NCBI GenBank assembly: GCA_964016885.1
Contig: CAXHJY010001254.1
Location: 2,744 to 66,743, forward strand
Source: Eledone cirrhosa
Taxonomy: Eukaryota
DNA length: 64,000 nt
Direction of reading: 5' to 3'
The translations under genes and the position numbers were made by a program. The notes beneath the pieces are model-generated. The model was not told the DNA's origin and did not search any database. It worked only from the letters and a program-made list of their open reading frames with translations. Shown piece by piece: positions 2,963 through 48,118 of the stretch. Numbering within the stretch: the stretch's first letter is position 1; the number at the start of each line of letters is the position of its first letter.

Positions 2963-3115
2963 ATATATAATATATATATAATATATAATATATATATATA
3001 TATATATATAATATATATAAATGAAGTAATACCGTCGGAAAAGTCCAGGAAAAAAGAGTTCTCTATGTAGGTAACAGAGCTTAATAGTTATGTAATAAAC
3101 AACATAAGGCAATTA

Positions 3116-3187
3116 TTTCATTTACCAGTGGTTTACCAGTGGTTTCTTAAAAGCCACAACATTTTGCTTTCAATCATCAGAATGAAA
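3116..3187 (-). ncRNA. Type I HHR motif with duplicated stem III
   Basis: Reverse complement: TTTCATT-CTGATGA-TTGAAAGC...GCTTTTAA-GAAACCACTGGTA-AACCACTGGTA-AATGAAA. Confidence 0.75.
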
Positions 3188-3295
3188 AAATCCTGGCGTA
3201 TTTATTGACTTTGGATTTTAAAAACAAAAATGCAATCTATATGAGTGAGGCTGGAGAAGGAAGAAGGAAAGGAAAAATAAAATAAAAACACACAT

Positions 3296-3326
<31 letters not shown>

Positions 3327-3339
3327 ATTATATACATAC

Positions 3340-3792
3340 ATTCGCGAATTCAAAAGAATCAATCACTGATTGACCTCGATGTCAAGTGATTGATTCTTTT
3401 GAATTCGCCACCGACTAAGTAGGCAGTGATTTTTTTAATGTCCTGGAATTTAGTCCTCGCTTGCTTTTTTCCATCCACTGAATTATTTTTGTATAAGTTC
3501 CCTGTGTCCACGCATTGCCTGGGAACTTAGCTGAGAACACATCTCCCTGATGACGAAAGGATATTTCTCCATGTTGTTCCAATCGGAAACCATGTTTATT
3601 CCCTTTCAGAAACAAATTAGTTGGAGTGAAATTTTAGTAAGTAAGTAAATTTTTATAATTTTCTTAATTTACGTCTTTCATATAATTGTTCTGCATCCCC
3701 ATGCATTGAACCACAAAGTTACTAACACAAAACCTATATATTTGCTAGCATAGGTATGCATCTGTATATATATGTTAGTAGATATACTAATT

Positions 3793-3795
<3 letters not shown>
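3340..3795 (+). mobile_element. Diverged copy of non-coding HHR repeat family B
   Basis: Similar to 5961-6666 (CACTGATTGACCTCGATGTCA, GTAAGTAAGT..., CCCCATGCATTGAACCACA). Confidence 0.7.
3543..3626 (+). ncRNA. Type I HHR motif (family B)
   Basis: CTCC-CTGATGA-CGAAAGG...CCTTTCA-GAAAC-AAATTA-GTT-GGAG. Confidence 0.75.
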
Positions 3796-3831
<36 letters not shown>

Positions 3832-4619: not shown

Positions 4620-5226
4620 TGTTATACTTTGGGAGGGTCATGTTGCCAATAAGAAACACACGCACCAGTTGCTTTCACTTCAATTTATTATAATAAAATT
4701 ATAAATTTAGGAATTTATAAATCTCTGGTTGGTTAGTTGATTCCACAACCAGATGGTTGTTTATATATTGTCAACGTTCTTTCGTCACACATTCTGTGAC
4801 CTCTTCAGTGACTGGGGATTCTTTTCTTTGTTTTTTGTGCCTCTCCTTTGTTCTGTCCTACGCCATCTCTCCTTTGTTCTGTTCTATGCCACACACAAAC
4901 AAGTTGGCGTAGGACAGAACAAAGTAGAGGCACAAAAAAACAAAGAAAAGAATCCCCAGTCACTGAAGAGGTCAAGAGAATGTGTGCCGAAAGAACTTTG
5001 ACAATATATAAACGACCATCTGGTTGTGGAACCAACCAACCAACCAACCAACCAGAAATTTATAAATTCCTAAATTTATAAATTTATATATTTATTATAA
5101 TAAATTGAAGTGAAAGCAACTGGTGCGTGTGTTTCTTATTGGCAACATGACCGTCCCAAAGTATAACAATATCGGTTTCAACACACGTTTACAGATAAAG
5201 AATCTTGCTAAACAAATTCAGAAACG

Positions 5227-5230
<4 letters not shown>
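4620..5230. mobile_element. Inverted pair of PLE pLTRs (~245-bp arms), related to the 3' end of the PLE at 45130-48080
   Basis: 4621-4865 is the reverse complement of ~4895-5167; terminal ATGACCGTCCCAAAGTATAACAAT resembles ATGACCCTCCCCAAGTATAACAAT at ~48058. Confidence 0.7.
4959..5002 (+). ncRNA. Minimal HHR motif in the pLTR (mirror copy ~4770-4812 on -)
   Basis: GTCA-CTGAAGA-GGTCA...TGCC-GAAAG-AA-CTT-TGAC. Confidence 0.55.
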
Positions 5231-5802: not shown

Positions 5803-5808
<6 letters not shown>

Positions 5809-6663
5809 AAGAATTCATATCTAGTAACATATATATACATACAGATGCATATCAATGCTAGCAAATATATAGGTTTTGTCTTAATAACAGTGTGGTTCAA
5901 TGCATGGGGTTGCAGAACAATAATATAAGAGACGTAAAATAAGTTTCTAATAAGTTTCTAATAAGTTTCCAGTGTCCTCGCTTTGCCTGGAAACTTACAT
6001 GAGAATAGACTTTCCTGACGACGGAATGCTTCTCTATATTATTCTTCGGAAAATATATTTACTCCATTCCAGAAACTAATTAGTTGGAAGTGATATTTTA
6101 GTAAGTAAGTTAATTTTATAATTTTCTTATTTTACGTCTCTTATATTATTGTTCTGCAACCCCATGCATTGAACCACACTGTTATTAAGACAAAACCTAT
6201 ATATTTGCTAGCATTGATATGCATCTGTATGTATATATATGTTACTAGATATGAATTCTTTATTATTATCTCCAAATTATTTGTCGAGCAATATTGGCCA
6301 TGACTGCTGCTACGGTTGTAGGCAGGCCGCTGTCTTATTAGCAAACCACTTTCCACTGATTGACCTCGATGTCACGTGTTCGATTCTTTTTGAATTTGCC
6401 ACAGACGTAGAGGCAGTGATTTTCTCAATGGCTTGGAATTCAGTCCACGCTTCGCTATTTCCTATCCACTGAATTATTTTTTAATAAGTTTCCAGTGTCC
6501 TCGCTTTGCCTGGAAACTTACATGAGAATAGACTTTCCTGACGACGGAATGCTTCTCTGTATTATTCTTCTGAAAATATATTTACTCCATTCAAGAGACT
6601 AATTAGTTGGAAGTGATATTTTAGTAAGTAAGTTAATTTTATAATTTTCTTAATTTTACGTCT

Positions 6664-6666
<3 letters not shown>
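5803..6666 (+). mobile_element. Non-coding HHR repeat family B: ~523-bp tandem unit with a 5' inverted segment (retrozyme or pLTR-like)
   Basis: 5961-6143 repeats at 6484-6666; 5803-5943 is the reverse complement of ~6125-6263; no credible ORF. Confidence 0.75.
6009..6091 (+). ncRNA. Type I HHR motif (family B); second copy at 6532-6614 has GAAAC>GAGAC
   Basis: ACTTTC-CTGACGA-CGGAATG...CATTCCA-GAAAC-TAATTA-GTT-GGAAGT; palindrome ACTAATTAGT. Confidence 0.8.
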
Positions 6667-6698
<32 letters not shown>

Positions 6699-6989
6699 AA
6701 ACAAAATGAAAACGAAATTTCATTTCTCACTCAGTATGGCACTTACTTAAATGTAAGTATGCATGTATACGTACATACATATATGTATACAGACGTACAG
6801 TAGCACGCACATATATATATATATACATATATATATACATATGCATACAGGTACACATACATATATGCACGTATCAGTTTAGCGGCGCTAACGTCGCTTT
6901 GTTCGTTTGTAAACAAACTGAACAGCCTGAATTTATGCCATACGGTGTTAAGGCAACCACGTCACCTTTTTGTTCAACACTGACACAGG

Positions 6990-7034
6990 AACGATGTACT
7001 AGTTTCAAGCTTGTTAGCTATCATCAGCACCGTT
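6990..7034 (-). ncRNA. Minimal type I HHR (family A)
   Basis: Reverse complement matches 7635-7679. Confidence 0.85.
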
Positions 7035-7553
7035 TACCCATCTGCCAGATAGTTGAACGTTCGAAAGTATATACTTTCCTTATGAAAATTAACGGCTGAG
7101 CAGCCTAATTTGCATATTGAGTGAGTTAAATCGGTCAGGCATACCGAAAACGATAAATTGAAACAAAATGAAAACGAAATTTCATTTCTCACTCTTGAAA
7201 CTAGTACATCGTTCCTGTGTCAGTGTTGAACAAAAAGGTGACGTGGTTGCCTTAACACCGTATGGCATAAATTCAGGCTGTTCAGTTTGTTTACAAACGA
7301 ACAAAGCGACGTTAGCGCCGCTAAACTGATACGTGCATATATGTATGTGTACCTGTATGCATATGTATATATATATGTATATATATATATATATGTGCGT
7401 GCTACTGTACGTCTGTATACATATATGTATGTACGTATACATGCATACTTACATTTAAGTAAGTGCCATACTAAGAGTGAGAAATGAAATTTCGTTTTCA
7501 TTTTGTTTCAATTTATCGTTTTCGGTATGCCTGACCGATTTAACTCACTCAAT

Positions 7554-7606
7554 ATGCAAATTAGGCTGCTCAGCCGTTAATTTTCATAAGGAAAGTATAT
7601 ACTTTC
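7554..7606 (+). promoter_or_regulatory. Putative snRNA-type promoter module: octamer, PSE-like segment, TATATA
   Basis: ATGCAAAT 7554-7561; CTCAGCCGTTAATTTTCATAAG 7569-7590; TATATA 7596-7601 inside palindrome GAAAGTATATACTTTC; octamer and TATA retained in diverged copies near 8370-8420 and 34243-34295. Confidence 0.35.
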
Positions 7607-7634
7607 GAACGTTCAACTATCTGGCAGATGGGTA

Positions 7635-7679
7635 AACGGTGCTGATGATAGCTAACAAGCTTGAAACTAGTACATCGTT
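7635..7679 (+). ncRNA. Minimal type I HHR (family A)
   Basis: AACGGTG-CTGATGA-TAGCT-AACA-AGCTT-GAAAC-TA-GTA-CATCGTT; palindromic stem III ACTAGT. Confidence 0.85.
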
Positions 7680-7918
7680 CCTGTGTCAGTGTTGAACAAA
7701 AAGGTGACGTGGTTGCCTTAACACCGTATGGCATAAATTCAGGCTGTTCAGTTTGTTTACAAACGAACAAAGCGACGTTAGCGCCGCTAAACTGATACGT
7801 GCATATATGTATGTGTACCTGTATGCATATGTATATATATATGTATATATATATATATATGTGCGTGCTACTGTACGTCTGTATACATATATGTATGTAC
7901 GTATACATGCATACTTAC

Positions 7919-7998
<80 letters not shown>

Positions 7999-8019
7999 TA
8001 TATATATAATATATATATG

Positions 8020-8490
8020 TACGGAAAAAATGAAACGAAATTTCATTTCTCACTCTTAGTACGGCTGTTACTTAAATATAAGTATGTATACGTACATACA
8101 TATATGCATACAGACGTACAGTAGTATGCATATATATATATATATATATACATGCACACATATATATATATATGTACGTATGGATTCACCGATCATTTAT
8201 TATAATGTTCGGTGTGTTTGTAAATAAACATCCCGAATTAAGCCGTACAGTGTCTAGCAACCATCGTTGCTCATTTGTTCAACACTGACAAGGGAACGCT
8301 GTACTAGTTTCAAGCTAATTAGCTATCGTCAGCAACGTATACCTTCCTGCCAGATGGTTGAACGTCTGAAAGTATATACTTTCCTTATGCATAATAACGG
8401 CTGAGCAGCCTAATTTGCATATCGAGTGAGTTAATCGGCCGGGGTACCGAAAACGATAAACGGAAAAAATGAAACGAAATTTCATTTCTC
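8020..8490 (-). mobile_element. Diverged family A unit with terminal direct repeat and intact HHR at 8296-8338
   Basis: Reverse complement: ACGTTG-CTGACGA-TAGCTAATTAGCTT-GAAAC-TA-GTA-CAGCGT; ACGGAAAAA(A)TGAAACGAAATTTCATTTCTC at both ends. Confidence 0.8.
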
Positions 8491-8676
8491 TGTTTATCTG
8501 TTTATCGTTATAATATATATAATATATATTTAATATACATAATATATATAATATATATAATATATATAATATATATATATAATATATATATATAATATAT
8601 ATATATAATATATATATATATATATAATATATATATATATTATATATAATATATATATATATAATATATATATATA

Positions 8677-11394: not shown

Positions 11395-11502
<108 letters not shown>

Positions 11503-11830
11503 GTAATAATAATAAATTTGAAGACTAAAATCCAAAGAGGGCTCGATAAGAATAAATATATATCAAATATATAAGAACCGTAGAGCAAATATTTATTAAA
11601 ATAACAGATTAAAGTTTAAGCAAAGAATCGCTGCTTTCACCCTACGACCTCTTTTATACCATAAACGTGGTTCTGTCTTTGCGCGTAATTGTTTTTCACC
11701 GCTCCTATTAATGACGTATTATATTCGTTTTTTCCCGTTCTTTGCCAGCGAAGGTTTCCACGAACCAAAGTATCGTCTTCCTGTCTTCCTCCGGTTGCAA
11801 AGTTTTTTGAAATATCCACTTCTGCCTTTA

Positions 11831-11904
11831 CAGATTGACTTTGTTAGTTTCAGAAGATCCCGTTAAGGGTGAAAGCAGCGATTCTTTGCTTAAACTTTAA
11901 TCTG
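11831..11904 (+). ncRNA. HHR variant (U4A core CAGAAGA) in PLE-1 pLTR; further copies 15084-15157, 20020-20093, 50856-50929 (+) and 18766-18839 (-)
   Basis: CAGATTGA..AGTTT-CAGAAGA-TCCC-GTTAA-GGGT-GAAAGCAG..TTGCTT-AAACT-TTAATCTG; bulged extended stem I; CTT triplet. Confidence 0.65.
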
Positions 11905-12050
11905 TTATTTTAATAAATATTTGCTCTACGGTTCTTATATATTTGATATATATTTATCCTTATCGAGCCCTCTTTTGATTTTACTCTTGAAATTTATTAT
12001 TATTACTATTTGGCTCCCTCGGTTGAGCACTCTACTGACTTATATTCATC

Positions 12051-14163
12051 ATGCAGAAACAACATCTTAATATTTCTAGAAAGAACATACCCGTACCAAG
12101 CAGGAAAACATACCTAAAACTCCTGATACAGAAAACAGGCGCGTTCATTAAAAGGTTGCGTTGGCGTGCCTTTTATTTCGATAATCCGCGAAAAGCAGAC
12201 AACAAACAGGATAAATTTGGATTTAAAACCTATACTAAACCCCGTGTAACCCAGCATTGCTACCCTTCGAAAATGATGTCTTGGAACTCATTCGGAGTAT
12301 CAAATTACGGAATAGGAGCAATTCCTTCCAGCAAGACCTGAAGAATATAATTCGTTGTATTAAGGATTCTAATGCCGTGCACGTCCATTCCGACAAAACT
12401 GGCAACCTATATCAAGTGGAGTGCAGTACTTACCATCAACTACTACATAATGCTGTAACTAAGGATTATCGTAAAACTAATCGGTGCGTCATCAATGAAA
12501 TCAACGGTTCTGGGTTTAAAATGACATCTGATCTCAACATCCTGGACCGGACCGAACCTCTGGACCCTATTTCTCCCCACTTTACCCTGAAGGATCACAA
12601 ATCCAATTTTCCGAACAACCCCTCTATTCGGCTTATTAACCCTACGAAGTCCGATTTAGGTAGACTTAGTAAAACGATTCTTGATAGAATTATAGCTGAA
12701 ATTAGAAGTTTGGCCCCTCTTGCACTGTGGAACAACTCTTTCGCGGTGATTGATTGGTTCAACGGCATATGTAACAAGGAACATTGCCGTTTTATCCAAT
12801 TCGACATCAACAATTACTACTCCTCCATCACTTTACCACTTTTCCTTAGAGCTATCAATTTCGCTAAAACACTCACAGTGGTTAAGGATTTCGAAGTTGA
12901 TGTCATCCTCAATGCCCGAAAGTCGGTGATTAATTTCGACGACTCTATTTGGATTAAAAAATCCAATAGTACCGCATTCGACGTGAGTATGGGCGCCAGT
13001 GATTCTGCGGAGGTTACTGATCTTATCGGCCTTTTCTTTCTTTTCTCTATCAAGGACGAATTCCCCAACGCGGACGGTGGTTTGTACCGTGACGATGGTC
13101 TTTTGACCATGACTAAGTGCGGACCTCGTGCTTGCGACAGGTTCAGAAAAGAACTCACAGCCTTCTTTAAAGACTTCAACCTCTCTATACAGGTTGAGGC
13201 CAACCTCTCGGTCGTTAATTACCTCGACGTTACCCTCAATTTATTGAATGGGTTGTATTACCCGTATAGAAAGCCGAATGATACGCTTAATTACATAAGT
13301 AAGCATTCCAATCATCCTGCCAGCATAACCAAGAACCTGGTAAGAAACGTTTCGTTGAGGCTTTCCCGTCTTTCCACCAACGAGCGTTCCACTTATTACA
13401 ATGAAGCTCTTGCTCGAAGTGGATTTGTCGATAAGGTAGCATATACAGAGTACGAAAATAGACCTAGAAGAAATAGATCCCGTCGCATTTGTTGGTATAA
13501 CCCACCATATAATATGGAGGTGGCCACACCATTAGCTAAGATCTTTCTTTCCCTTATTACGAAGCATTTTCCCCTACACATAAATATAGTAAAATTTTTA
13601 ATAGAAATACTATTAAAATTTCTTACTCTACGACTCCTAACCTTGCACATAACGCCACAGCTTCAAATTTAGCTAAACTACCTAGCCGTAGGAACGCGTG
13701 CAACCCTGTAGTTAGTACTAACTGTAATTGTAGGAATCGGGTTGATTGCCCCCTATCCGGGAAATGCCTCTCTAGCAACATTGTCTACAAATGTAAGGTT
13801 GTAACACCCACGTCCCGTAGAGCCTACATAGGGTTAACCGCCAATAGATTCAAGCAGCGTCTTTAATTGCATACCCATTCTTTTCGTTACCCTCTAAGAA
13901 GGAATATAGCGTCGCTTTCAGCTTATATCTGGAGTCTAAAAGACAACCACACCCAATATAAGTTACACTGGGAGATCCTAGCTAGGGCTAGATCGTATAA
14001 CGGAAATAAAAGACCATGTGACCTCTGCGCCGCTGAGGCTCTGGAAATACTCTACGCCACAGACCACATCTTAAACAAAAAATCTGAGGCAATTTCGGCT
14101 TGTAAACATAAATTGCACAAAACTTTCCTGTATTACAGCCCCACGTTATACCCTAACGGATAG
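12051..14163 (+). pseudogene. PLE RT/GIY-YIG polyprotein, disrupted by frameshifts near 12250 and 13580 and a stop near 13864; possibly Hydra clade
   Basis: DKTGN, TLKDHK, FDINNYYSSI, SMGA, LYRDDG, WYNPPY; CNCRNRVDCPLSGKC linker; IVY...YIG; CDLC...LNKKSE...CKH. Confidence 0.88.
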
Positions 14164-15256
14164 TGCTATCTATACGTGGATATTTTACGTCTTGATGTGG
14201 GAGCTAAGTATGTTTTGTTTATACCATTACTTATTTGCATAGGTAAGTATATATTAGCCGTATGTTTTGTGAAGGTACGTATACCTTCTCGTACGTATAT
14301 TTGATTGTTTATGTTATGGCGTATATTTTTATATATTCTGGTACATATGGTTTGGCTATGTGTATACGGGAGTTTTGCTTCTGTGTGAGTATGCAGTGTG
14401 TACGTATGTAGGGTGTGTGTATGTGTGTACTTCATGTTTTGGTTGACTTACGTATCCGAACATTCGTGTATTTACATGTAGGTATGTGTGTGCTTTTGTT
14501 ATATACGTATTTATTTATTTATATACGTTTATATAATTATTTAGTTATTTGTATACACGCATACACACACACACATATTTATATGTGCATAGTTTGGTTT
14601 ACCTATGGTAAGTGTTTTGCGTATGCTTGTGTATGTACGTATTTGTTTGCGTGTATGTATTTATTTATTTCTATTACTTCTGTATTGTATTTATTTACTT
14701 TGTTCTTAACTATGTAGCGGAGATTCATTCGGTCCCCTAGTTAGAATTTTAGTCTACGACTTCTGCTATACCATTTACGAGGTTTTGTCTTTGCGTGCTA
14801 TTGTTCTCCACGATCCATATATGACGTATTATCTTCGTTTTTTTTCGTTCATTGCCAGAGAACGTCTCTATGAACCACCTAAGAGACAATTAGTCTACGA
14901 CCTCTTTTATACCATAAACGTGGTTCTGTCTTTGCGCGTAATTGTTTTTCACCGCTCCTATTAATGACGTATTATATTCGTTTTTTCCCGTTCTTAGCCA
15001 GCGAACGTTACCACGAACCAAAGTATCGTCTTCCTGTCTTCCTCCGGTTGCAACGTTTTTTGAAATATCCACTTCTGCGTTTACAGATTGACTTTGTTAG
15101 TTTCAGAAGATCCCGTTAAGGGTGAAAGCAGCGATTCTTTGCTTAAACTTTAATCTGTTATTTTAATAAATATTTGCTCTACGGTTCTTATATATTTGAT
15201 ATATATTTATCCTTATCGAGCCCTCTTTGGATTTTAGTCTTCAAATTTATTATTAT

Positions 15257-15330
<74 letters not shown>

Positions 15331-18707: not shown

Positions 18708-18738
<31 letters not shown>

Positions 18739-18751
18739 TACATATATATAT

Positions 18752-20105
18752 ATTTATTAAAATAACAGATTAAAGTTTAAGCAAAGAATCGCTGCTTTCA
18801 CCCTTAACGGGATCTTCTGAAACTAACAAAGTCAATCTGTAAACGCAGAACTGGATATTTCAAAAAACGTTGCAACCGGAGGAAGACAGGGAGACGATAC
18901 TTTAGTTCGTGGAAACCTTCGCTGGCAAAGAACGGGAAAAAACGAATAATACGTCATTAATAGGAGCGGTGAAAAACAATTACGCGCAATATATATATAT
19001 ATATAATATATAATGTTTTGTTTATTCCTTTACTTATTTGCATAGGTAAGTATATATTACCCGTATGTTTTGTGAAGGTATGTATACTTTCTCGTACGTA
19101 TATTTGACTGTTATGGCGTATAATTTTTACATAGTCTGGTATTTAGGGTTTGGCTATGTGTATACGGGAGTTTTGCGTCTGCGTGAGTATGCAGGTTCGT
19201 ACGTATGGTGGGTGTGTGTATATGTGTACTTCTTGTTTTAGTTGACTTACGTCTCCGAACATTCGTGTATTTATATGTAGGTATGCGTGTGCGCTTGTTA
19301 TATACGTATTTATTTACTTATATACGTTGATATAATTATTTATTTATTTATTTGTACACAAGCATACACATACACACACATATTTATATGTGCGTGGTTT
19401 TGTATACCTATGGTAAGGTTTTGCGTATGCTTGTGTATGTACGTATCTGTTTGCATGTATGTATTTATTTGTTTCTATTACTTCTGTATTGTATTTATTT
19501 ACTTTGTTCTTAACTCTGTAGCGGAGATTAATTTTAGTCTACGACTTCTGCTATACCATTTACGTGGTTTTGTCTTTGCGTGCTATTGTTCTCCACGCTC
19601 CACATATGACTTATTATCTTCGTTTTTTCGTTCATTGCCAGAGAACGTCTCTATGCACCACCTAAGAGAACATTAGTCTACGACCTCTTTTATACCATAA
19701 ACGAGGTTCTGTCTTTGCGCGTAATTGTTTTTCACCGCTCCTATTAATGACGTATTATATTCGTTTTTTCCCGTTCTTTGCCAGCGAACGTTACCACGAA
19801 CCTAAGTATCGTCTTCCTGTCTTCCTCCGGTTGCAACGTTTTTTGAAATATCCAGTTCTGCGTTTACAGAAGTGGATATTTCAAAAAACGTTGCAACCGG
19901 AGGAACACAGGAAGACGATACTTTGGTTCGTGGAAACGTTCCCTGGCAAAGAACGGGAAAAAACGAATATAATACGTCATTAATAGGAGTGTTTTTTTAA
20001 ATATCTACTTCTGCGTTTACAGATTGACTTTGTTAGTTTCAGAAGATCCCGTTAAGGGTGAAAGCAGCGATTCTTTGCTTAAACTTTAATCTGTTATATT
20101 AATAA
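18752..20105. mobile_element. PLE-1 3' UTR/pLTR copies: 18752-18989 (-) and 19013-20105 (+) with an internal inverted duplication ~19740-19990
   Basis: Homologous to 14210-15170. Confidence 0.85.
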
Positions 20106-20171
20106 ATATATATATATATATATATAAATATATATATATATAAATATAAATATATATAAATATAAATATAT

Positions 20172-26087: not shown

Positions 26088-26682
26088 TGGGAGTTTGTGA
26101 AGTGGGGTGATAGTGGAGGGTGGTTCTGGGTGATAGCTCGAATGTTTTTTTCCAGTTCTTTTGCCAGATTCATTATGGCTAAAAAAGAGGAAGAAGTTTC
26201 CTGTTTAGGAGACTGTTGGTGACTGTGGTAGTGGTTATTTTTATGTAGGTTATGGTTTTTGTTTTTGCATTTATTTTTATTTTTATTTTCATTTGTCCGA
26301 CGGGTCCCCGGGAGATGGGTAAAGGGACAATCCCGGTGTAAACATAATCTGTCTCGCATGTGGGTATGGTGTGGCGTGCGATGGCCGGAGGCGGGGGAGT
26401 GCTCGACCGGAAGGGGTCTTTGGCCGGAAGGATGCTCGACCGGAAGGGCCAGCAGAGGGTCTCTCTCTAGTGGTGACCAGCACACGGTGTGGACGCGAGT
26501 TTTGGGCAGCTCCCGGTGTTAAGCAGTTGGACGCACGTGGAAGAGGAGTACCTGCAGTGGAATTTAGCGGCGCCTGTGAAAAGCGGTAAGTGAGATAGCT
26601 TTTTCTAACCACAAGCTATTTCGGCGACTGAAAAAAAAACAAAAAACCAAAAAAAAACACTTGCCGCAAGACAAATCAGAAG

Positions 26683-27444
26683 ATGGCAACAAGACTACGG
26701 ATGAACGAAGCTATCAGGGCATTCACCGGGGAAGGTGATGTTGTCGCTTGGCTGCGGAAGGTTCGGCTGGTCGCAAGCTTGCAGAAGATAGAGGACGTGG
26801 CCGGCCTCATGGCATTGTACCTCGAGGGCGACGCGCTGGTACTCTTCCTTGAGTTGGACGAGCACAGCCAAAGAGATGTGCAGAAGATTGAGAGGCGTCT
26901 GATGGATGCATTCGCCGAGGGACCGTTGGCGGCTTTTGCTAAGCTGGCGAGAATCAGGTGGAATGGTGAGCGCGTCGACATTTTCGCAGCGGAAATAAGG
27001 CGGTTGGCTATGTTGGCCGGTTACCAGGCGGAATGCGAACGCACGGTGCGGTTGGCGTTCATCAATGGATTTCCGGACGACATAGCGGTGAAACTGCAGC
27101 AAGTCCCGGGTTATAAAGAGATGGAAATGCGTTCACTGGTGGAACAAGCCCGGATCATAGCGGAAGATGCCAAAAAGAGTGTTGCGGCGATGGCAACTAC
27201 GGAGGCTCAGGACACCTGGCAGCGAAATGGTGAAAGGGAGGCAACCTCGACACGCGGCCGTCCGCATGCGTTTAGGGGGCGCTGTTTTCGGTGCCAGGGC
27301 CCGCATATGGCTAGAGACTGTAGAGAGTCGAAGCCGGAGATAATTTGCTACCGGTGTAAGCGACCGGGCCACATCGCTACTAACTGCGACCAGGGAAACG
27401 ATCCAAGGGGAACTACTGCGCCGGTAGTTGCCCCTTACGAGTAG
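26683..27444 (+). CDS. gag: Gag with two zinc knuckles
   Basis: CFRCQGPHMARDC and CYRCKRPGHIATNC. Confidence 0.9.
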   Translation: MATRLRMNEAIRAFTGEGDVVAWLRKVRLVASLQKIEDVAGLMALYLEGDALVLFLELDEHSQRDVQKIERRLMDAFAEGPLAAFAKLARIRWNGERVDIFAAEIRRLAMLAGYQAECERTVRLAFINGFPDDIAVKLQQVPGYKEMEMRSLVEQARIIAEDAKKSVAAMATTEAQDTWQRNGEREATSTRGRPHAFRGRCFRCQGPHMARDCRESKPEIICYRCKRPGHIATNCDQGNDPRGTTAPVVAPYE

Positions 27445-27450
27445 CGGCGC
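27393..27450 (+). promoter_or_regulatory. Programmed -1 ribosomal frameshift signal (slippery heptamer + pseudoknot)
   Basis: G GGA AAC in gag phase (27393-27399); stem AAGGGG-AACTAC/GTAGTT-G-CCCCTT; loop GCGCC complementary to GGCGC at 27446-27450; -1 frame is open into pol. Confidence 0.8.
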
Positions 27451-27455
27451 TGCCC

Positions 27456-29414
27456 GTGGTGGAAGTCTTCGTGAGGGGGAAGCCACAGCGAGCCCTCGTG
27501 GATACGGGCTGTACGACGACACTGGTGACCGCGGGGGTGGCGCAGAGGTGGGGAGGGAAGAGCAGCGTAAGGGCAGTCGACGGCAGGAAAATTGAATGCC
27601 GAGGTTGCAGCGAGATGGAAATAGCGGTACGGGGAAGGAGGATAAGGCTTTCCGCCATCGTGGTAGACAGTGTGGTGGAAGGGATCGGCGTGGTTATGGG
27701 CATGGACGCGATTGGCCGTCTAGGGGGCGTCACGGTGAACAATGTCGGTGTGTCGTTTGGCGCCGCTGCATCGGTATGCGCTGTGAGTGCACGTCATGAG
27801 AACCAGAAGGCCCACGAGGAGGAATACCCCGCTTACACTGTACAGGACAAAGACTTCAAGGCCGTGTTTGATGGGCAGCGATGGGTTGGTGAGTGGTACT
27901 GGAAGGGAGAACCACTAACACTGGAGACCAAAGTGGGCTGCTATCAACACACATTGAAGGGAAACGCTAGGAGCGAGTTCGAGCGAGAAGTAGAGAGATG
28001 GATCGAAGAGGGCATACTGCTTCCCTGGAAGGAGGAGGTGAAGTGCGGAGTATTGCCGTTGATGGCGGTGGTGCAACCCACGAAGAGCAAGGTGAGGCCG
28101 GTGCTGGACTATCGGGAGCTGAACGAGCACGTGTCATGCCACACGGGTGGCGAGGTCACGGATATCTGTGGGGAAACCCTGCGTGAGTGGAGACGCATGA
28201 CGGGGGGTTCAGCGATCGTGGATCTAAAGTCGGCTTACTTGCAGTTGCATATAGATGAGAAGCTCTGGCGGTATCAGCTGGTCAGGTATAAGGGCCGGAC
28301 ATATTGCCTGACCAGGCTCGGTTTCGGGCTGAGCTCCGCACCGAAGATCATGGCGGCGGTCCTCAAGACCGCTCTGGGGAGGGCCGACAAGATAAAAAGG
28401 GCTACTAACTCCTATATTGACGACATCCTAGTGGACGAGTCGGTGGTGTCGACGGCAGAGGTCACGAGCCATTTGCGGAGGTATGGACTGACTGCGAAGC
28501 CATCAGAAGCATTGGAGGGAGGAGCCGCGCTGGGACTTAGGCTACGGCGAGACAAGACGGGCGTTTTGGTGTTCCAGAGGGGAAACGAAGTCCCGGAACT
28601 GGGCCCAAGTATGAATAGGCGGGAGCTTTTCTCGGTGTGTGGAAAGCTGGTGGGTCACTACCCGATCGCTGGGTGGCTCCGGACGGCATGCAGCTATGTC
28701 AAGAGACGAGCGGGAGGGGTGACTTGGAGTGACAGAGTGGGAGAGAGGACGATGGCCATGATGCAGGAGATCGTGGGGAGGGTGAAGGCCGACGACCCAG
28801 TGCGGGGACGCTGGTACGTTCCCAAATCACAGAGCGGGCCCGTATGGTGCGATGCCAGCAGCATAGTGCTGGGTGTCACGTTGGAGATAGGAGGTGTTGA
28901 GGTCGAGGATGCAGCCTGGCTTAGAAAGAAGGACGACTGCAGCCACATCAATGTGGCCGAGCTGGACGCGGTGTTGAGAGGAGTGAACCTCGCCCTGCGG
29001 TGGGGGCTGCGCACCATCGAGATACGCACCGACTCGGCTACTGTACTCGGATGGGTAAGATCAGTGCTCACCAGTGAGAAGAGAGTGCGAACGAGAGGCA
29101 CGGCGGAGATGCTGATAAAGCGCCGCCTGGGAACGTTAGGAGAGCTGGCCACCGAGTTCGACCTGAAGCTGAGAGCAGTGTTCGTGCCCTCAGAGAAAAA
29201 TAGGGCGGACATCTTAACTAGAGTGAAGAAAGCCTGGATGGAAGCGCCGGAGGAGGTGGAGGATGAGATAGCTGCCGTGTGTCGGCTGACCGAGTTAGAC
29301 CTGAGGGGGTTGCATGACATGCACCACATGGGGGTGGATAGGAGCCTGTTCCTAGCCAGGAGAATTGACTCGGACGTTAGCAGACACAGTGTTCGGGGGG
29401 GGGGGGGGGGTTAG
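27456..29414 (+). CDS. pol: Pol: protease, RT, RNase H and start of integrase
   Basis: LVDTGC, VDLKSAY, LGFGLSSAP, YIDD, CDAS/AELDA/TDS/NRAD, HDMHHMG. Confidence 0.9.
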   Translation: MVEVFVRGKPQRALVDTGCTTTLVTAGVAQRWGGKSSVRAVDGRKIECRGCSEMEIAVRGRRIRLSAIVVDSVVEGIGVVMGMDAIGRLGGVTVNNVGVSFGAAASVCAVSARHENQKAHEEEYPAYTVQDKDFKAVFDGQRWVGEWYWKGEPLTLETKVGCYQHTLKGNARSEFEREVERWIEEGILLPWKEEVKCGVLPLMAVVQPTKSKVRPVLDYRELNEHVSCHTGGEVTDICGETLREWRRMTGGSAIVDLKSAYLQLHIDEKLWRYQLVRYKGRTYCLTRLGFGLSSAPKIMAAVLKTALGRADKIKRATNSYIDDILVDESVVSTAEVTSHLRRYGLTAKPSEALEGGAALGLRLRRDKTGVLVFQRGNEVPELGPSMNRRELFSVCGKLVGHYPIAGWLRTACSYVKRRAGGVTWSDRVGERTMAMMQEIVGRVKADDPVRGRWYVPKSQSGPVWCDASSIVLGVTLEIGGVEVEDAAWLRKKDDCSHINVAELDAVLRGVNLALRWGLRTIEIRTDSATVLGWVRSVLTSEKRVRTRGTAEMLIKRRLGTLGELATEFDLKLRAVFVPSEKNRADILTRVKKAWMEAPEEVEDEIAAVCRLTELDLRGLHDMHHMGVDRSLFLARRIDSDVSRHSVRGGGGG

Positions 29415-30270
29415 AGGCTGCGTCCGATGTCAGTCCATTGATCCCGCCCCGGGTGTACACGAAACGGGAAGCCTCCCGGTGGATCGCGACTGGAAGCGAT
29501 TAGCGGTGGATGTGACGCACTACCGGCAGGGAACGTACCTCTCGATGGTCGACTGTGGACCAGGTCGAGTGGCGATATGGAGGGAGATGAAGACTGGAAC
29601 GGCCGAGGAAATCGTGCGGACGTTGAGAGAGGTGTTCTTGGAGCGGGGCCCTGTGGACGAACTGCTGATGGACAACAGCGCAGCGTTCCGCTCGGAGGCA
29701 CTGAGGGAGATGCTCGATGGATGGAAGGTGGACCGTTTCTTCAGAGCGGCGCACAGGCCGAGCGGGAATGGAATCGTGGAGCGACACCACCGGACGATCA
29801 AGGCAATGGCGGAGCGGGGCCATATCTCACCAATGAAGGCAGTGTTCTGGTACAATATGTCCCCTCGGGTTGGACAGGTCGAGGAATCGGTGCCACATAG
29901 AGCAGTATTCAAATACGAGTGGCGGCACGCGTGCACGCCACCACAACGGCCAGTGGGGAGGGAGAGTGCATTCGGGCAGGTGGGCGAAGAAGTCTGGGTT
30001 AAGCCCCCAGATGCACGTTGCACATCTCAATGGGGAAGGGGAACGGTGACGGCCGTAAATTCAAAGAACAATGTGCCCGTGGACGGGGTACCACGTCATG
30101 TCCTGGATGTAAGAAGAATCACTGTGTCGACGGACTCCGAGGAAGAGGAAACCCAAGATGAGGTGGAAACCCAGAGCTCTGCCCCAATACTACGAAGATC
30201 GCAACGAAGTCGTAGACCACCGGCCTGGACAGCAGACTTTCATATGCAGAGGGACGAGGGGGGAAATTGA
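29365..30270 (+). CDS. Integrase, shifted out of the pol frame at the poly-G run 29395-29410
   Basis: CVRC, AVDVT, MDN, NGIVER, GEEVWVK. Confidence 0.8.
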   Translation: MTRTLADTVFGGGGGVRGCVRCQSIDPAPGVHETGSLPVDRDWKRLAVDVTHYRQGTYLSMVDCGPGRVAIWREMKTGTAEEIVRTLREVFLERGPVDELLMDNSAAFRSEALREMLDGWKVDRFFRAAHRPSGNGIVERHHRTIKAMAERGHISPMKAVFWYNMSPRVGQVEESVPHRAVFKYEWRHACTPPQRPVGRESAFGQVGEEVWVKPPDARCTSQWGRGTVTAVNSKNNVPVDGVPRHVLDVRRITVSTDSEEEETQDEVETQSSAPILRRSQRSRRPPAWTADFHMQRDEGGN

Positions 30271-30816
30271 TCCTTGAGATCAGGGGGCGTGTGGGTATGG
30301 TGTGGAGTGCGGTGGCCGGAGGCGGGGGAGTGCTCGACCGGAAGGGTGTGTGGAGTGCTCGACCGGAAGGGCCAGCAGAGGGCCTCTCTCTAGTGGTGAC
30401 CAGCACACGGTGTGGACGCGAGTTTTGGGCAGCTCCCGGTGTTAAGCAGTTGGACGCACGTGGAAGAGGAGTACCTGCAGTGGAATTTAGCGGCGCCTGT
30501 GAAAAGTGGTAAGTGAGATAGCTTTTTCTAACCACATCGCAGGGAAAAGCGGCAGATTTGTGGATTCCTTGTTTGAGTTATTGGTGGTGTTGGTGTTAAA
30601 TTAGAGTATGTATTATGGTGGTGGCTGTTTGTGGGGATAGACCGTTTTGTCCTAGGTAAATGGGTGAATTTGCAGCCACTATCCGTACATATTCTATAGC
30701 GTAGAGAGTAACGACAAATGGTGGGGTTTCGAGTGGGTGTGTGTGTGTGTTGTGAGAGGTGTAGATGATGGTTTGAGTAGGTTTTGACGACCTTTGTGGG
30801 CTGTGGGAGGGAGAGT

Positions 30817-33683: not shown

Positions 33684-33750
33684 TATTTTATCTGATGAGG
33701 ACGTACTATTGAAGATAGCTCAGTACATCTGAAATATGTATAATAAAATA
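33684..33750 (+). ncRNA. Minimal type I HHR with canonical core
   Basis: TATTTTAT-CTGATGA-GGACGTACT...AGTACATCT-GAAA-TATGTA-TA-ATAAAATA. Confidence 0.8.
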
Positions 33751-33844: not shown

Positions 33845-34585
33845 GGAAAAAATGAAATTTCATTTCTCACTCTTAGTACGGCTGATACTTAAATATAAGT
33901 ATATATACGTACATACATATATGTATACAGACGTACAGTAGTATGTATATACATACATACATGCACACATATATATACATGTACGTATGGGTTTACCGAA
34001 CATTTATTATAATGCTCGGTTTGTTTGTAAACAAAGAGCCCAAATTATTAGCCGTACAGTGTTCGGCAACTATCGATGCCCTTTTGTTCAACACTGACAA
34101 AAGAACGACAAACTAGTTTCTAGCTTATTAGCTGTCATTAGCACCGTATACCTTCCTGTCATTTGATTGAACGTTTGAAAATATATACTTTCCTTATGCA
34201 TATTAATCGTTTTCGGTACGCCCGGCCGACTAACTCACTCGATATGCAAATTAGGCTGCTCAGCCATTAATATGTATAAGGAAAGTATATACTTTCAAAC
34301 GTTCAATCAACTGACAGGAAGGTATATGGTGCTAATGACAGCTAATAAGCTAGAACTAGTTCATCGTTCCTTTGTCAGTGTTGAACAAAATGGCAACGAT
34401 GGTTGCCGAACACTGTACGGCTAATAATTCGGGCTGTTTGTTTACAAACTGAACATTATAATAAATATTCGGTAAACCCATACGTACATGTATATGTGTG
34501 TGCATGTATGTATGTACTGTATATACATACTACTGTACGTCTGTATACATATATGTATGTACGTATACATACTTATATTTATATA
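33845..34585. mobile_element. Inverted pair of family A units with decayed HHR cores (CTAATGA)
   Basis: 33845-34204 (-) and 34205-34585 (+) homologous to 7194-7922. Confidence 0.8.
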
Positions 34586-40295: not shown

Positions 40296-40977
40296 GCGAG
40301 AAAAATGTTACCCATACCTGTTTTAAATTTTATTATTATCACCATTTAAATTTTATTATTACAGGATCGATAAAATGAAGTACCAGTGATGCACTGGGAT
40401 CGATTTAATCGACCCCCCCCCAAAAAAAAAATTTGTTGGCCTTGTGTCTAAATCAGAAGCCATCATTATTGTTGTTAGTATTGTTACTCGGTGAAACTAA
40501 AACGAGCTTTCTCCATGCTCCACTATTTCTGTTCAATTGGTGTCTGTAGTCTTTGCTGATTGTTGTGTGTAGATCTAATCAATAAAGAGAGCAACTCCAT
40601 GACAGTTCCACTTTTCTGACTGTCGACGGATGCTCCCTTCATCGAAAGATCTCATCAATTTCTTTGTCACGTGAAACTTATGGCGGCCATCTTGAAATAT
40701 AAACTGATGATAGAAATAATATCTTCATTCTTCGACATTTCCTGCGTTTTTTTTCTATTGCAACTGATATAAGTTCTGTCGATCGATTGGTCAACGTTTT
40801 GTCAGTTATATTGGAGCATTTCTGAAACAACAACAAAATATGTAAAGAAAACATGACATAAATAATTATGAAGAAAAAAAACCACATTAATAAATTACCA
40901 ATATCATTTTCTAGGCAAATATTGGACATAACTACTGGCATGTCTTTGTCAGACTTCAGTAGAGTATAGTAGTTTTC

Positions 40978-43089: not shown

Positions 43090-44995
43090 TACACATGACA
43101 CTAATACACCTACAACTTACCAAATAAAAAACAAATTAATACCACAATGGTAGACATCTCTTAAAAACAGGAAATTCTCCTTTTGGAAGATGATACAAAA
43201 CAATAACAAAGCGGAGCTCTATGAAAAATGGATTAACTCATCCCCATTAATCATCCCCCGCAAACTACAAATTAAATACATCCCAAATGAACCAAAGACA
43301 CAAAGACACCCCAGGGAAAGAATGGCACTTGATAACATAAAAACTGAAATTGAACTCCTTAAATTGAGAGCCCAAGCAAATGAAGATAGGATCAAATAAA
43401 TCGATGAGGAGATTAATCTAGCAATTATCAATATAACCAAAGACACCACCCTAGAAAATATTTCAAAATTATGGTTAGAGGACTGTAATAAGGAAGAATT
43501 AAAATCCTTTCAACACTGGGAAATAAACGAAACCTGGTTCTCTAACTATGAAACACTTTTCCAAAAAGAACACACATCCAAGAACCCCTTCATTAAAACC
43601 ATAACAAGAAAACTCAATCAACACCCAAACACCACACAACAACCAACAACAACAAAAAAACAATACCTCCCCACATACCAACAAAAGAAGGCATCACCTT
43701 GCCCCTACCTCCTACATCCTCCACACAACTACCACACGGACTCCCAAGCAACAAATATAGTAATAGAGAAACATCAGCTACAAGATAGACACAACAACTT
43801 CTCTCCCACCAGGAGAAACCATAAAACCCCCCACACTTACAACCCCCTTAACATCCCCACACAACAAACCCACAACCATCATTACTTCCAACATAGAACC
43901 CAAAATACACAACTACCACACATGTCACACAGGGCCTCACAACCACACACCAGCTATAAGGAAACCCTAATCTACCCTCCCCCACTAACCACATCCTACT
44001 ACAACACCACCAGCAGGGGACAATATAACCACACGAGACACCCTAACCACTACAACCACCATAGCTACACACCATATAACAGCAACAACAGGACTCAATA
44101 TGACCACACAAGACAACCCTACTACAACTACCACCAAGTCTACACACCCTACAACAACAGCAGTGCTCAACACAACCACACGATACAACCCAACTTCAAG
44201 AACCACCACAACTTCACACCCTATAACCACGTCCATCAAATCTACACACCCTACAACAACATCAGCAAGGCTCAATACAACCACACGATACAACCTAAAC
44301 TCAACAACCACCACAGCTACACACCATCTTACAACAACACAATACAACTATAAGAGACATCCAAACTTCAACAGCCATCACAACTTCCGTAATCATTTTT
44401 TAGACACAGCACACAGACACAGGAGACACAAAATGCAATAAAAATTGTCAATTTAACTTCTAAAGAATTAACAACAGACTAAATCAACATACTCTCCAAA
44501 GGTCTAAAATTTACACCAACTCCCCAACAACCAAACTACCCCCGAAATGAAGGAAGATATTGCAGAATTCTGTAGAAAACTAAGACTCAGCGAACAACTA
44601 TACAACAAATACAATGAGGATGACTCAATAGCCAGAAATAGAAGCAACTACACCCCACCAAAAGGCAAGAACAAATTCCTTGATCAATTCTGTGAACACA
44701 TTACTTATTACCCATACCACCACCTACACAGACATAAACAAAAACCAAACCCAAGCAAAAAAGAATGGAATGGTCTTAACAGTCTAAAAGACGACAAAAC
44801 CCTAACAATCAAAGAGGCAGATAAAGGGAGTGCAGTAGTCCTTATGGAGACAGATTATTACACAACTCTAGTACTCTCAACTCTAGAAAACCAAACATAT
44901 TATGAAAAGGCCCAACACTACACACAACAGAAAATAATGAGAAACCTAAAATCCCTAACAACCCTTTACAAAGAAGGCCTTACAGACAAGGAATA
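43090..44995 (+). pseudogene. 5' part of another PLE, truncated before the RT core
   Basis: IVNLTSKEL...LSKGLKFTPTP...FCRKLRL...IKEADKGSAVVLM, typical PLE N-terminus. Confidence 0.7.
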
Positions 44996-45657
44996 CAACA
45001 ACAACAATAACGGTGAAGTAAACAACAATACGTCTAGCAATCATAACAATAATAATAATGCTAATGATAGAAACAACAACAACCACCCTGATAACAACAA
45101 TAGCAACACACACAACTATGACGATAGATATAATGACAACCCCTTAGAGAAACTATTTTTCAACCCAGCTGACAAAACATATAAGATGGGTAATATCTAT
45201 CCTACGAGGTTACCCTTTAATAAAAGAGTTTGCATACCACAGCAAATAGATGACGAGACAGAGGCACAGTTCACCATAGCTAGAAATAAGATTAGACAAG
45301 TAGTAGACAGGTATACTAAGAGACAGAGCAGACCAGAGGCCCAACAACTTGGGAGGAAACCTGTAGAAGGCTTGGTTAGCCTCAAGCAGCGCACAAGGGA
45401 TGGTGAGGTAGTGTGTCTACCCACAGATAAGTCTGGTAGGATGTCAATAGATAGCATGCCGAACTACATCGAGGCTATGCAACCCCACATCACCAACACG
45501 AGCGAAGTTGCACAACAAACACACGATGGGAGAGAGAAAATCCTCAACGCTCACATGATGATGTGGACTGACATCCTAAAGCCAAGCAGCTGACATCCTA
45601 AAGCCAAGCAGACGCACTGCCAACAACTTCCAGGCGTCTAACAATGGCATACCACCC

Positions 45658-47565
45658 TTGTATGGGCTCCGCAAAGATCACAAGACAGTCGACGACCCGA
45701 CAACAGGACCACCAACAAGACCCGTATGCGGAGCTAATATAGCTAGCAACTACAGGATCTCCTACTTCCTCTCAATGGTTATATGCCCCATAATCAAGAT
45801 GTCCCCAGATGTATGTGAAAGTACAGAGGACCTCCTCAGCAGAATCAGTGAGTGCAACAAAAACAGGAGCCTATCCAACTGCATAATAGGCAGCATGTAT
45901 GTGGTGTCACTGTACCCATCCATTAACATTGATTTTGTTGTGAAAAGATGTGTGGAGATGATCATTGAGAGTGAGGTGGAGTTCTGCGACATCGACACAG
46001 ACGAACTGGGCCTCCTACTTAGACTTACCTACGACACTGACTACCTAGACAGCCATGACCTTAGATGTTTCTGCCCTAGTAGACCTATAAGAGGTAGACC
46101 CCCCACCATAACCTCAATGGCAAAAAAGACTCCCATGGGAAGGTGGATTGGGTGGATCAAAGCTATACGGACCCCCCAAAACAATGATCAGGTAAGAAAA
46201 ATGGTCGCACATGCAATAGGGGCTAGTATCAAAACTACCCTAAAGGGCCACATATTTAAGTTCAATGAGAAAATCTACACCCAAAATGAGGGAGCAGCCA
46301 TCGGCGTCAGCATAGCTGGTGATGTTGCCAACCTTTTCATGGTATGGTGGGAAAGGAGACTTAAAGATCTCCTTAATGAAAGCTCCATAGACCTCATCAT
46401 GTACTCTCGTTATGTAGACGATATCAATATAGTTATAAGAACACCCCCACTAGAGAGCACTAACAAGTTTGAGTTAGAACGTAGCACGATGGAAAGCATC
46501 CAGCAGATAGCTAATTCCATACACCAGAGTATAACTGTAACTATCGACTTCCCTTCCAAACACCCTAACAATAGACTACCTGTATTAGACACAGAACTCT
46601 GGATTAACACTATAGACGAGAGAGCCCAAATTCTCCACTCACACTATGCTAAACCCATGGCCTCCAAATACCTGATACTCAAAAACTCAGCAATGTCCAG
46701 TAGTGCTAAGTTTAATATTCTGATCGCAGATTTGGTACGAGTGATGAAGAATGTGTCCAGCATGTGTGACCCAACAGAAATGGAAAGACACATCCAACAC
46801 TTCATCAACCGCATGCAGTTCTCTGGCTACAACCAAAGAGACAGAATCAGAGTATACGAAGGAGCCATGGAGAAGTATAAGACCCTCATAGAACTGGACA
46901 TGAAAGGAATTTGCCCATTATACAGGAGCAAATCATGGAATAGCTTAGATAGGGCTAGACATAAGATAGGGAAGGCCACATCATGGTACGACAACCAGAG
47001 ATATCAGAGTATCATGTTTGTGGACGCCACCCCTAGAGGGAAATTAGCTAACCAGTGTAGAAAGGCCTTGAGAAAGACCCACTTAAAAATAAAGGTGGTA
47101 GAAAAACCAGGAACCACCATAAAATCCCTGATCAGCAAAACCTACCCTTTTAAGAAAACCCACTGTACCAATAGGAAATGTATCATATGTAAGGTGAACC
47201 CCCGGATAAACTGTAAAACTAGAAACGTAGTCTATAGCATAAGATGTACAGAGGGTACTTGCAGAAACATGACAACAACATACATAGGTGAGACAGCTCG
47301 TAGCATAGGTGAAAGGATAGACCAACACTGGGGGGAACTAAAAGGACGAAAAAACGGGTCAGTACTATACGAACATGCTAGACAACATGACGGTAACATA
47401 GACAACATAGAAATTAGAATAATATCTAAACATAGGAATGACCCAGCAGATAGGCAAATCAGAGAGGCCAGTGAAATAGAAATTAGAAGACCAAAGCTAA
47501 ACAGAAAGAATGAGTGGAACAACAACAACACCCAAACAAACAACACTGACCTAAGAGAAGTATAA
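45658..47565 (+). pseudogene. PLE-2 RT/endonuclease ORF, probably inactive
   Basis: Motif A reads SMYVVSLYPS where Asp is expected; 22-bp duplication 45568-45611 separates it from the upstream frame. Confidence 0.8.
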
Positions 47566-47828
47566 ATAAGTAAATAAAATAAAATAAGATAAATAAATAC
47601 TTACACAAGCACAATAACAACAAGCACATAAACACACACTAGTCACCCAGCAGACACAACACTATACACACTAGTCACACAGCAAACATAACACTATACA
47701 CACACGCAAACGTATGCGCAAAGAAGACAAAATAAAATAAACAAACAAGCAAATAAATAAATAAATATATAGACAGACTGAATAAAAAATGGCGTAGACA
47801 TACAACACAACAGGAGGAAAAAATATAA

Positions 47829-47870
47829 CACCACTGACGATGTTGCAGATGTGCAACGAAAGATTTATGT
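47829..47870 (+). ncRNA. HHR-like motif in PLE-2 3' region (weak stem I)
   Basis: CTGACGA-TGTTGCA-GATG-TGCAAC-GAAAGATTTA-TG. Confidence 0.5.
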
Positions 47871-48118
47871 AAATTATGTAAACTATATATATGTGTTTGT
47901 GTCTATATTGTATCTGTATTATTTTTGACCGTCGGTCAGTCAATGGCAACATTGAGGACCGAGTAAGTTAGATTGCAGATATAAAAGACAGCGAGAAGCG
48001 AAAACCAACCAAACAATGAGTGTGTTCTGTTATTAATTCTGGCAATATTACACAAATATGACCCTCCCCAAGTATAACAATATATATATATATATATAAC
48101 AGGTATAATATGCATATA

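Follow-up and report, generated by a model that had tools for sequence, protein, structure and literature searches.

A 466-bp hammerhead repeat of Eledone cirrhosa with Penelope-type insertion ends, probably a non-autonomous retrozyme

Non-LTR retrozymes (LTR, long terminal repeat) are an already described class (PMC7229834; Li et al. 2026, 10.64898/2026.07.22.740005; PMC6155905; PMC11722881), and Li et al. argue that those of animals derive from the pseudo-long terminal repeats (pLTRs) of Penelope-like elements (PLEs); the enzyme that moves them was left open in 2020 (PMC7229834) and was argued from phylogeny in 2026 (Li et al.). Insertion by PLEs is marked by partial tandems, by a 5'-truncated copy inverted alongside and by a tail of 30-40 bp (Craig et al., PMC8557442), and a PLE protein cuts and extends both strands of AT-rich DNA, two internal start sites defining the tail (Frangieh et al., PMC11167929). 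Here we describe family A, a non-coding hammerhead repeat in a 64,000-nucleotide (nt) stretch of Eledone cirrhosa DNA (assembly GCA_964016885.1, contig CAXHJY010001254.1, positions 2,744 to 66,743 of the forward strand; hereafter the window, with position 1 its first letter). We conclude that family A is probably a non-autonomous retrozyme of this known class, mobilized by PLEs and copied in trans by a PLE reverse transcriptase (RT)-endonuclease, because its copies have PLE-type ends and no open reading frame (ORF) lies between its units.

Unit, copies and insertion ends

Family A has a period of 466 bp, positions 7194-7456 being identical to 7660-7922, and a GC content of 36%. Five copies at three loci were found in the window, in agreement with a first-pass annotation of this DNA, which had described a unit of ~465 bp in tandem and inverted arrangement: the inverted copy lies at 6696-7196 and the diverged copies at 8020-8490 (-), 33845-34206 (-) and 34202-34581 (+). 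The copies, which fall into three subfamilies (A1 to A3), and the segments of the unit referred to below are as follows.

6696..7196, minus strand: copy c1 (A1), 1.07 units; begins at +267 past the cut site and runs to the T-rich 'tail' point at its 3' end, then (AT)n
7194..7923, plus strand: copy c2 (A1), an exact tandem of 1.56 units; begins 13 nt ahead of a cut site and closes with CATTTA at its 3' end, then (TA)n; back to back with c1 with an overlap of 2-3 nt
7194..7213, plus strand: c2 opens at its 5' end with the 3' half of a hammerhead, from GAAA and the palindrome of stem III through the cut site to the 3' arm of stem I
7457..7516, plus strand: 'tail' region between the two 3' end points (+251; about +295 to +310); holds T4 runs (7495, 7501) and is predicted to form a hairpin
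7796..7910, plus strand: TA/TG-rich segment, predicted to form a long imperfect hairpin
8020..8490, minus strand: copy c3 (A2), one unit extended by a short terminal direct repeat
8491..8509, plus strand: short remnant of the unit in inverted orientation, reading GTTTATC twice and then GTT; it adjoins c3 at the 5' end of that copy, with (TA)n next; a weak match (nhmmer E=1.7)
33845..34206, minus strand: copy c4 (A3), octamer lost by 5' truncation; its 3' end lies in (AT)n at the tail point
34202..34581, plus strand: copy c5 (A3), back to back with c4 with a 5-nt overlap; 3' end TATTTA in (TA)n

Gaps aside, c1 and c2 are identical at 501 of 501 aligned bases; c3 and c5 match A1 at 400/445 and 322/372 aligned bases, c4 and c5 match each other at 293/312, and the three subfamilies are about 80-90% alike. 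The best-conserved 30-nt bin of the unit, 7869-7898 (29/30 and 30/30), lies just 5' of the first 3' end point. Neither a profile search nor a covariance model of the conserved module described below found a convincing further copy elsewhere in the window, and exact-pattern scans of metagenome contigs, viral contigs and prokaryote genomes returned 0 loci, as expected for an animal repeat.

Counted from the cut site, the 3' ends fall at +251 in c2 and c5 and at about +295 to +310 in c1, c3 and c4, giving two recurring end points 45-60 nt apart, and all five outer 3' ends lie in (TA)n. In each inverted pair one arm ends at the first point and the other arm at the second, the partners overlapping by 2-5 nt. 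A partial tandem together with an adjacent inverted, 5'-truncated copy is clear at two of the three loci, the third showing only the weak 19-nt remnant. As read from the sequence, these ends are a good match to the published PLE insertion signature, apart from the length of the offset. The 5' ends (+267, +273, +305, +371 and +454) never coincide with the cut site (0/5). Since all five copies read through a cut site and none starts at one, their templates would have been uncut multimers or circles. Subfamily A3, whose ribozyme core is mutated, still makes a full inverted pair (c4/c5); for PLEs, ribozyme mutants still insert, ribozyme cutting being dispensable in vitro (Frangieh et al., PMC11167929). 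As a separate observation, c1 has its start at AAGAG (+267), and precisely those two A's are missing on its second pass of that point (6728-6735, 7196); c3 starts 6 nt beyond the start point of c1. An RNA 5' end or a template jump could lie behind these starts, which fall near 7473-7479, upstream of the octamer; this is one case only.

We propose a route in which RNA polymerase II (Pol II) readthrough of the unit, from a pLTR-type or outside promoter, would yield multimeric or circular RNA. The PLE protein would nick both strands of a TA tract and reverse transcription would be primed at +251 and at about +295 to +310, one site per nick; the two cDNAs would then join over 2-5 nt of microhomology, leaving an inverted pair with the 'tail' on one side. 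Ribozyme cutting, which would occur mainly as a dimer via ACUAGU, is likely dispensable for insertion.

The tail is followed directly by the unit's own start, running into the octamer, in c1, c2 and c3, with no ORF between units. We examined four of the 24 public sequencing runs listed, and contigs that bridge tail and octamer occur in three of them: run X4 (record 16; 7469-7581, 0 differences), run X1 (record 1) and run X2 (records 6-8). Run X2 holds 5285 contigs with a summed depth of up to 2.2 million, which is not a copy number and fits a very abundant family; 47 of its contigs leave the unit at the T-tract of the tail region and enter TA-rich sequence, and the best six of its loose ends among those listed are unit variants or TA target. 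No conserved ORF was found in the unit, the longest ATG frames of the doubled unit (112 and 93 codons) being antisense and running through the microsatellite; absent from A1, a 57-codon frame that crosses the module of c3 was set aside. A 7715-to-7250 joint in read contigs marks where the unit was cut for the query and is no proof of circles.

One alternative would make the unit a pLTR, perhaps doubled in tandem, belonging to an autonomous PLE, with the window copies as 5'-truncated solos. Most PLE hammerheads in animal genomes are solo motifs from truncated elements (PMC4209133), the end signature would be the same, a PLE-like family of the window (family E) shows solo and inverted pLTR pieces together with an internal duplication beside its ORF, and a rare ORF-bearing master could hide among the 5285 X2 contigs. 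Set against these points are the unit's own start, rather than coding sequence, after the tail in all three subfamilies, the identity of those six X2 loose ends and the lack of a conserved ORF. At none of the three loci in the window does an ORF with RT and GIY-YIG motifs adjoin family A, and families B, C, D and F of the window show no significant likeness to it. The only non-family match of the family A profile search is the start of the family E pLTR (nhmmer E=9.7), where a 17-18 nt likeness (14236, 19039) was reached in 0/100 shuffles for 2 of 54 comparisons and a post hoc pattern for it gave four matches; against the real window this likeness only ties with an unrelated locus, and it is kept as a weak lead only. 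The annotation had said that its proposal would be overturned if the unit were simply the pLTR of an autonomous PLE; no ORF adjoins any copy in the window, yet the ends are PLE-made, and we regard the alternative as unlikely.

Twenty runs (X1-X20), which come from 15 studies and carry many organism codes, a wastewater metagenome among them, contain a family A stretch. The variants in run X2 number in the thousands; X1 yields a single identical contig of 470 nt at depth 7, and X4 has both subfamilies at depths from tens to ~240. The simplest reading of this spread is that a very abundant repeat was carried over; related species or horizontal spread may also account for it.

The hammerhead ribozyme

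Three copies carry an intact type I hammerhead.

7635..7679, plus strand: type I hammerhead of c2; stem I 7635-41/7673-79, core CUGAUGA 7642-48, stem II 7650-53/7658-61 with U-U at its base, GAAA 7663-66, palindrome ACUAGU 7666-71
7611..7697, plus strand: predicted extension of stem I, 7611-7631 pairing with 7680-7697 and enclosing the ribozyme
6990..7034, minus strand: intact hammerhead of c1, predicted cut after 6997
8296..8338, minus strand: intact hammerhead of c3, predicted cut after 8302

In c2 the predicted cut falls after A7672 at the cut site GUA, and the stems measure 7 bp (I), 4 bp (II) and 2 bp (III, palindromic), stem I ranging from 6 to 7 bp in the family. A strict type I descriptor gave three matches in the window (7642+, 7027-, 8332-), all of this one family, and none in 60 dinucleotide shuffles; an Rfam scan returned no hammerhead among 117 matches to E=1, and its microRNA matches over the unit, far below gathering scores, track the TA hairpin and were discarded. 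The complete type I core (CUGANGA, GAAA, NUH and stems I-III, with stem I open) is present in three of the five copies. The earlier statement that each unit bears a hammerhead thus holds for these three, whereas c4 and c5 read CTAATGA in place of CTGA-GA (34135-34141; 34332-34338), a change that we take to be inactivating, and c5 also lacks one A of GAAA. The label 'minimal' that the same annotation gave the motif does not apply: in the terms of Cervera and de la Pena this is an ordinary metazoan type I form, not their min-HHR, the ordinary form having helix I of 6 bp, helix II of 4 bp, helix III of 1-2 bp and a palindromic loop (PMC4209133).

All 24 stem I cells are paired, and no change in this stem among the copies breaks a pair. 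The single two-sided change, ACGGTG/CATCGT to ACGTTG/CAGCGT, is the one already noticed at first pass, and it replaces G-U by U-G, wobble by wobble. Stem II lacks the closing G10.1-C11.1 pair, having U7649/U7662 in A1 and A2 and C and A in A3, where that pair is reported to be highly conserved (PMC4209133). The usual metazoan type I hammerhead works as a dimer (PMC4209133). In our folds the active double hammerhead reaches -20.8 kcal/mol against -21.7 kcal/mol for the best dimer fold, and the active single form only -2.0 kcal/mol; the putative family A ribozyme is predicted to cut mainly as a dimer through ACUAGU.

These features bear on a further possibility, namely that the unit is a dispersed satellite amplified at the DNA level, its ribozyme and hairpins being relics of a PLE ancestor with no current RNA stage. 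The core mutations in two of five copies and the missing closing pair of stem II would suit such decay, cleavage was found in only one of nine tested elements by Li et al. (2026), and the same authors propose local tandem expansion after a PLE end has been deposited. Slippage and unequal crossover, however, do not explain three independent loci with two end points in (TA)n and inverted partners, and c1 and c2 differ by no substitution while all stem I changes keep pairing. We consider amplification as a DNA satellite highly improbable.

The octamer, PSE-like and TATA module

Directly upstream of the ribozyme, the first-pass annotation had recognized an octamer, a stretch resembling a proximal sequence element (PSE), plus a TATA motif, and had read them as a promoter of small nuclear RNA (snRNA) type. 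The motifs themselves are there, ATGCAAAT at 7554 and TATATA at 7596, and both are kept in the copies at 8020-8490 and 34202-34581. They coincide with two predicted hairpins.

7553..7588, plus strand: predicted hairpin 1; octamer ATGCAAAT (7554-7561) in the 5' arm, the 'PSE-like' stretch forming the 3' arm
7591..7606, plus strand: predicted hairpin 2, a perfect 16-bp palindrome GAAAGTATATACTTTC with TATATA (7596-7601) at its centre

Over the four copies that have the module, 95% of the cells are paired in helix 1 and 100% in helix 2, where the one change keeps a G-U pair (174 of 182 paired cells in all). The module fold has z = -2.3 to -2.7 in 3/3 copies, with 3, 9 and 7 of 500 shuffles as stable; a z of -8 for the circular-monomer fold is due to the TA segment and was not used. 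Conservation per 30-nt bin is 24-28/30 in the module, compared with 18-23 over 7719-7838 and 29-30 at 7869-7898. The octamer, 'PSE' and TATA are most simply read as arms and loop of two conserved RNA hairpins, as far as these fold predictions go.

An snRNA-type promoter would instead require that the unit's own octamer, PSE and TATA drive tandem masters, as in newt satellite 2, with PLEs still doing the copying. The 24-nt block 7552-7575, which includes the octamer, is invariant in 4/4 copies that have it, and run X2 shows no change at >=5% in 7552-7581 or 7585-7606; 7582 and 7584, in contrast, vary in ~54% of its depth. ATGCAAAT occurs six times in the window against 5.42 expected by chance, TATATA occurs 3992 times per strand, and conservation is equally high at 7869-7898. 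Beyond its own module every copy stops short of a full unit, at 338-420 nt where 466 nt would be needed, and none of the five genomic 5' ends lies at the supposed start 25-30 nt past the TATA. We compared the module with the human U6 promoter register as a stand-in, from which the host's own may differ. The human U6 TATA lies near -31, and in this register the module TATA falls at about -40, ~9 nt too close. CCGT at 7574-77 fits -62 to -59 in A1 and A2, whereas -53 to -51 read TTC or TGC and not the GAA of the human U6 PSE, whose AA is important for SNAPc binding (PMC9652321). The spacing is tight as well: 5 nt from the end of the PSE-like stretch to the TATA and 7 nt from octamer to PSE-like stretch, against 14 nt and ~175 nt in the predicted Schistosoma japonicum U6 promoter (PMC5460494), the human distal octamer element lying at -250 to -170 (PMC9652321). 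Compact octamer-PSE-TATA promoters do exist, as in H1, with an 84-bp core that includes a Staf site (PMC11340601), and newt satellite 2 itself has an snRNA-type promoter (PMC2220036, a secondary citation).

PSE plus TATA denotes the polymerase III (Pol III) type in vertebrates (PMC9652321). The unit has T4 runs at 7495, 7501, 7519 and 7581, with T6 in c3, and such runs would stop Pol III ~335 nt past the supposed start, ~180 nt ahead of the next cut site. PLE pLTRs, for their part, contain internal Pol II promoters (PMC2377424; PMC6765202). The Rfam scan found no snRNA gene in the window, and our literature search, poor in subscription papers, found no title or abstract opening that describes an octamer/PSE promoter in a hammerhead repeat.

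In the human register the promoter proposal fails on the SNAPc-contact bases and on U6 spacing, and its motifs are the arms and loop of the two predicted hairpins. An snRNA-type promoter in family A is poorly supported, the idea being weakened rather than refuted, and the version in which it drives tandem masters is, in our estimate, very unlikely. The conserved module may have some role in transcription, the snRNA type being the unlikely part. Also very unlikely is a joint reading in which the invariant octamer block is a real, sequence-specific promoter element that doubles as RNA hairpins, tandem master retrozymes transcribe themselves as a protostome counterpart of newt satellite 2, and the ends arise from the two-strand, two-start-site PLE reaction. 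Of the independently transcribed, self-processing, non-autonomous retroelement that the annotation had envisaged, the non-autonomy is supported (no conserved ORF, head-to-tail units, PLE-type ends), as is the dimer-type hammerhead, whose active dimer fold lies within 1 kcal/mol of the best, but independent snRNA-type transcription is not supported.

Candidate drivers, neighbouring elements and comparison with known systems

Several broken retroelement ORFs lie in the window, and three of them, at 12039-14160(+), 43400-47565(+) and 48287-50349(-), presumably carry the RT and GIY-YIG-like motifs of PLEs. Their RVT_1 match in a Pfam search was weak (E=0.00094, below the cut-off), 2166 unnamed relatives of ~700 residues were found among 8000 candidates scored, and a profile search against solved structures gave no match. 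The broken RT-endonuclease ORFs of the window have tandem and inverted ends as in family A and are the likely candidate drivers of family A.

Several points weigh against a PLE-mobilized retrozyme. No partner PLE of family A was found in the window, and the PLE identity of the window ORFs is weak, resting on motif resemblance and the RVT_1 match. The tail offset of 45-60 nt exceeds the published 30-40, and two X4 loose ends (before 7631 and behind 7666) run into unmatched sequence. None of the three loci has two complete same-strand ribozymes, the tandem comprising only 1.56 units; Li et al. (2026) call a retrozyme 'active' when two consecutive complete ribozymes stand in tandem, an arrangement found at 0/3 loci. 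Covariation in the module is not above that of shuffles (83/500), the hairpins being based on folding and invariance in four sequences, and the octamer arm is constant and its partner arm variable, a pattern suggestive of sequence-specific binding.

The window is animal DNA in which TA microsatellites are abundant, and its short interspersed nuclear element (SINE) and RTE repeats are ones that we take to resemble those of cephalopods. A mir-46/mir-47/mir-281 precursor lies at 40572-40653 (-), at 64.9 bits against an Rfam gathering threshold of 44.7, a hairpin indicative of a protostome, and an LTR retrotransposon at 26356-30536 has 258-bp repeats that are 94% alike and gag-, pol- and integrase-like ORFs. 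Other families with hammerhead-like motifs were also seen. Family B (3030-3800, 5803-6672, 58663-58851) has a 523-bp unit in a partial tandem and inverted layout in (TA)n, with the motif CTGAYGA...GAAA at 3547, 6015 and 6538 and no octamer, and is probably a second non-autonomous PLE family. Families C (4621-5230), an inverted pair, and D (47570-48081), which follows the RT-endonuclease ORF 45580-47565, share nearly identical terminal 24 nt and have hammerhead-like cores at 4808-, 4963+ and 47834+. Family E (11500-15262, 18716-20109, 50342-51033) comprises a broken PLE-like ORF, a 1.1-kb pLTR and many solo and inverted pieces; GTAAGT near 14243 and AG near 14716 may bound an intron, and the sequence near 15105 has a hammerhead-like fold with a variant CAGAAGA core. 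The start of family E bears an inverted octamer at 14233 and 19036, with a weak, not significant likeness to the family A module. Outside these families, two further hammerhead-like descriptor matches lie at 33692-33750 (+), 100 nt from c4, and at 63209-63251 (+).

Family A defines no new class, and the supplements of retrozyme papers may already list it. It joins a protein-free unit to the insertion signature of PLEs, namely an inverted pair, two end points and a TA target, and its ribozyme-mutant subfamily A3 inserted alike, which makes it a handy, probably high-copy test case for trans-mobilization and for the need for cutting. A true snRNA-type promoter would be more notable if true; the evidence leans against it.

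Newt satellite 2 (PMC2220036, PMC6155905) resembles family A in repeat length, at a few hundred bp, in its dimer-type type I hammerhead and in a stem I extension that carries an internal loop. The newt repeat has a tested Pol II snRNA-type promoter (PMC2220036), whereas the family A module has a TATA in addition, does not fit the human PSE register and is predicted to fold into hairpins. The Sm-alpha repeat of Schistosoma (PMC2220036, PMC6765202) is also an invertebrate one, in which a promoter is followed by a hammerhead; that promoter is a functional Pol III one, while the T runs of family A argue against Pol III readthrough. The non-autonomous PLEs of Chlamys, such as MRC1 (PMC8557442), share with family A their non-autonomy, pLTRs and head-to-tail copies, but they are green algal, belong to a clade that lacks canonical hammerheads and generally have a known matching autonomous partner (PMC8557442).

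Family A matches the pLTRs of endonuclease-containing (EN+) PLEs (PMC4209133, PMC8557442, PMC11167929, PMC2377424) in a hammerhead whose stem III is short and palindromic, in partial tandems with a truncated copy inverted beside them, in the two points at which 3' ends fall and in an AT-rich target. Family A differs from them in having no ORF after the tail and a tail of 45-60 rather than 30-40 nt, and it has no significant likeness to the ORF-linked pLTRs of the window; the mapped promoter of Penelope is internal and described as TATA-less (PMC2377424). From the metazoan non-LTR retrozymes family A differs in its copies of 0.8-1.6 units, arranged as inverted pairs in (TA)n and not as long tandems, in having no two complete ribozymes and U-U at the base of stem II, and in being known from DNA alone. 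It shares with them a non-coding, low-GC unit, a type I hammerhead and head-to-tail copies, and its 466 bp lie within the 51-972 bp range of retrozymes (Li et al. 2026), near the 350-390 bp of the mussel units.

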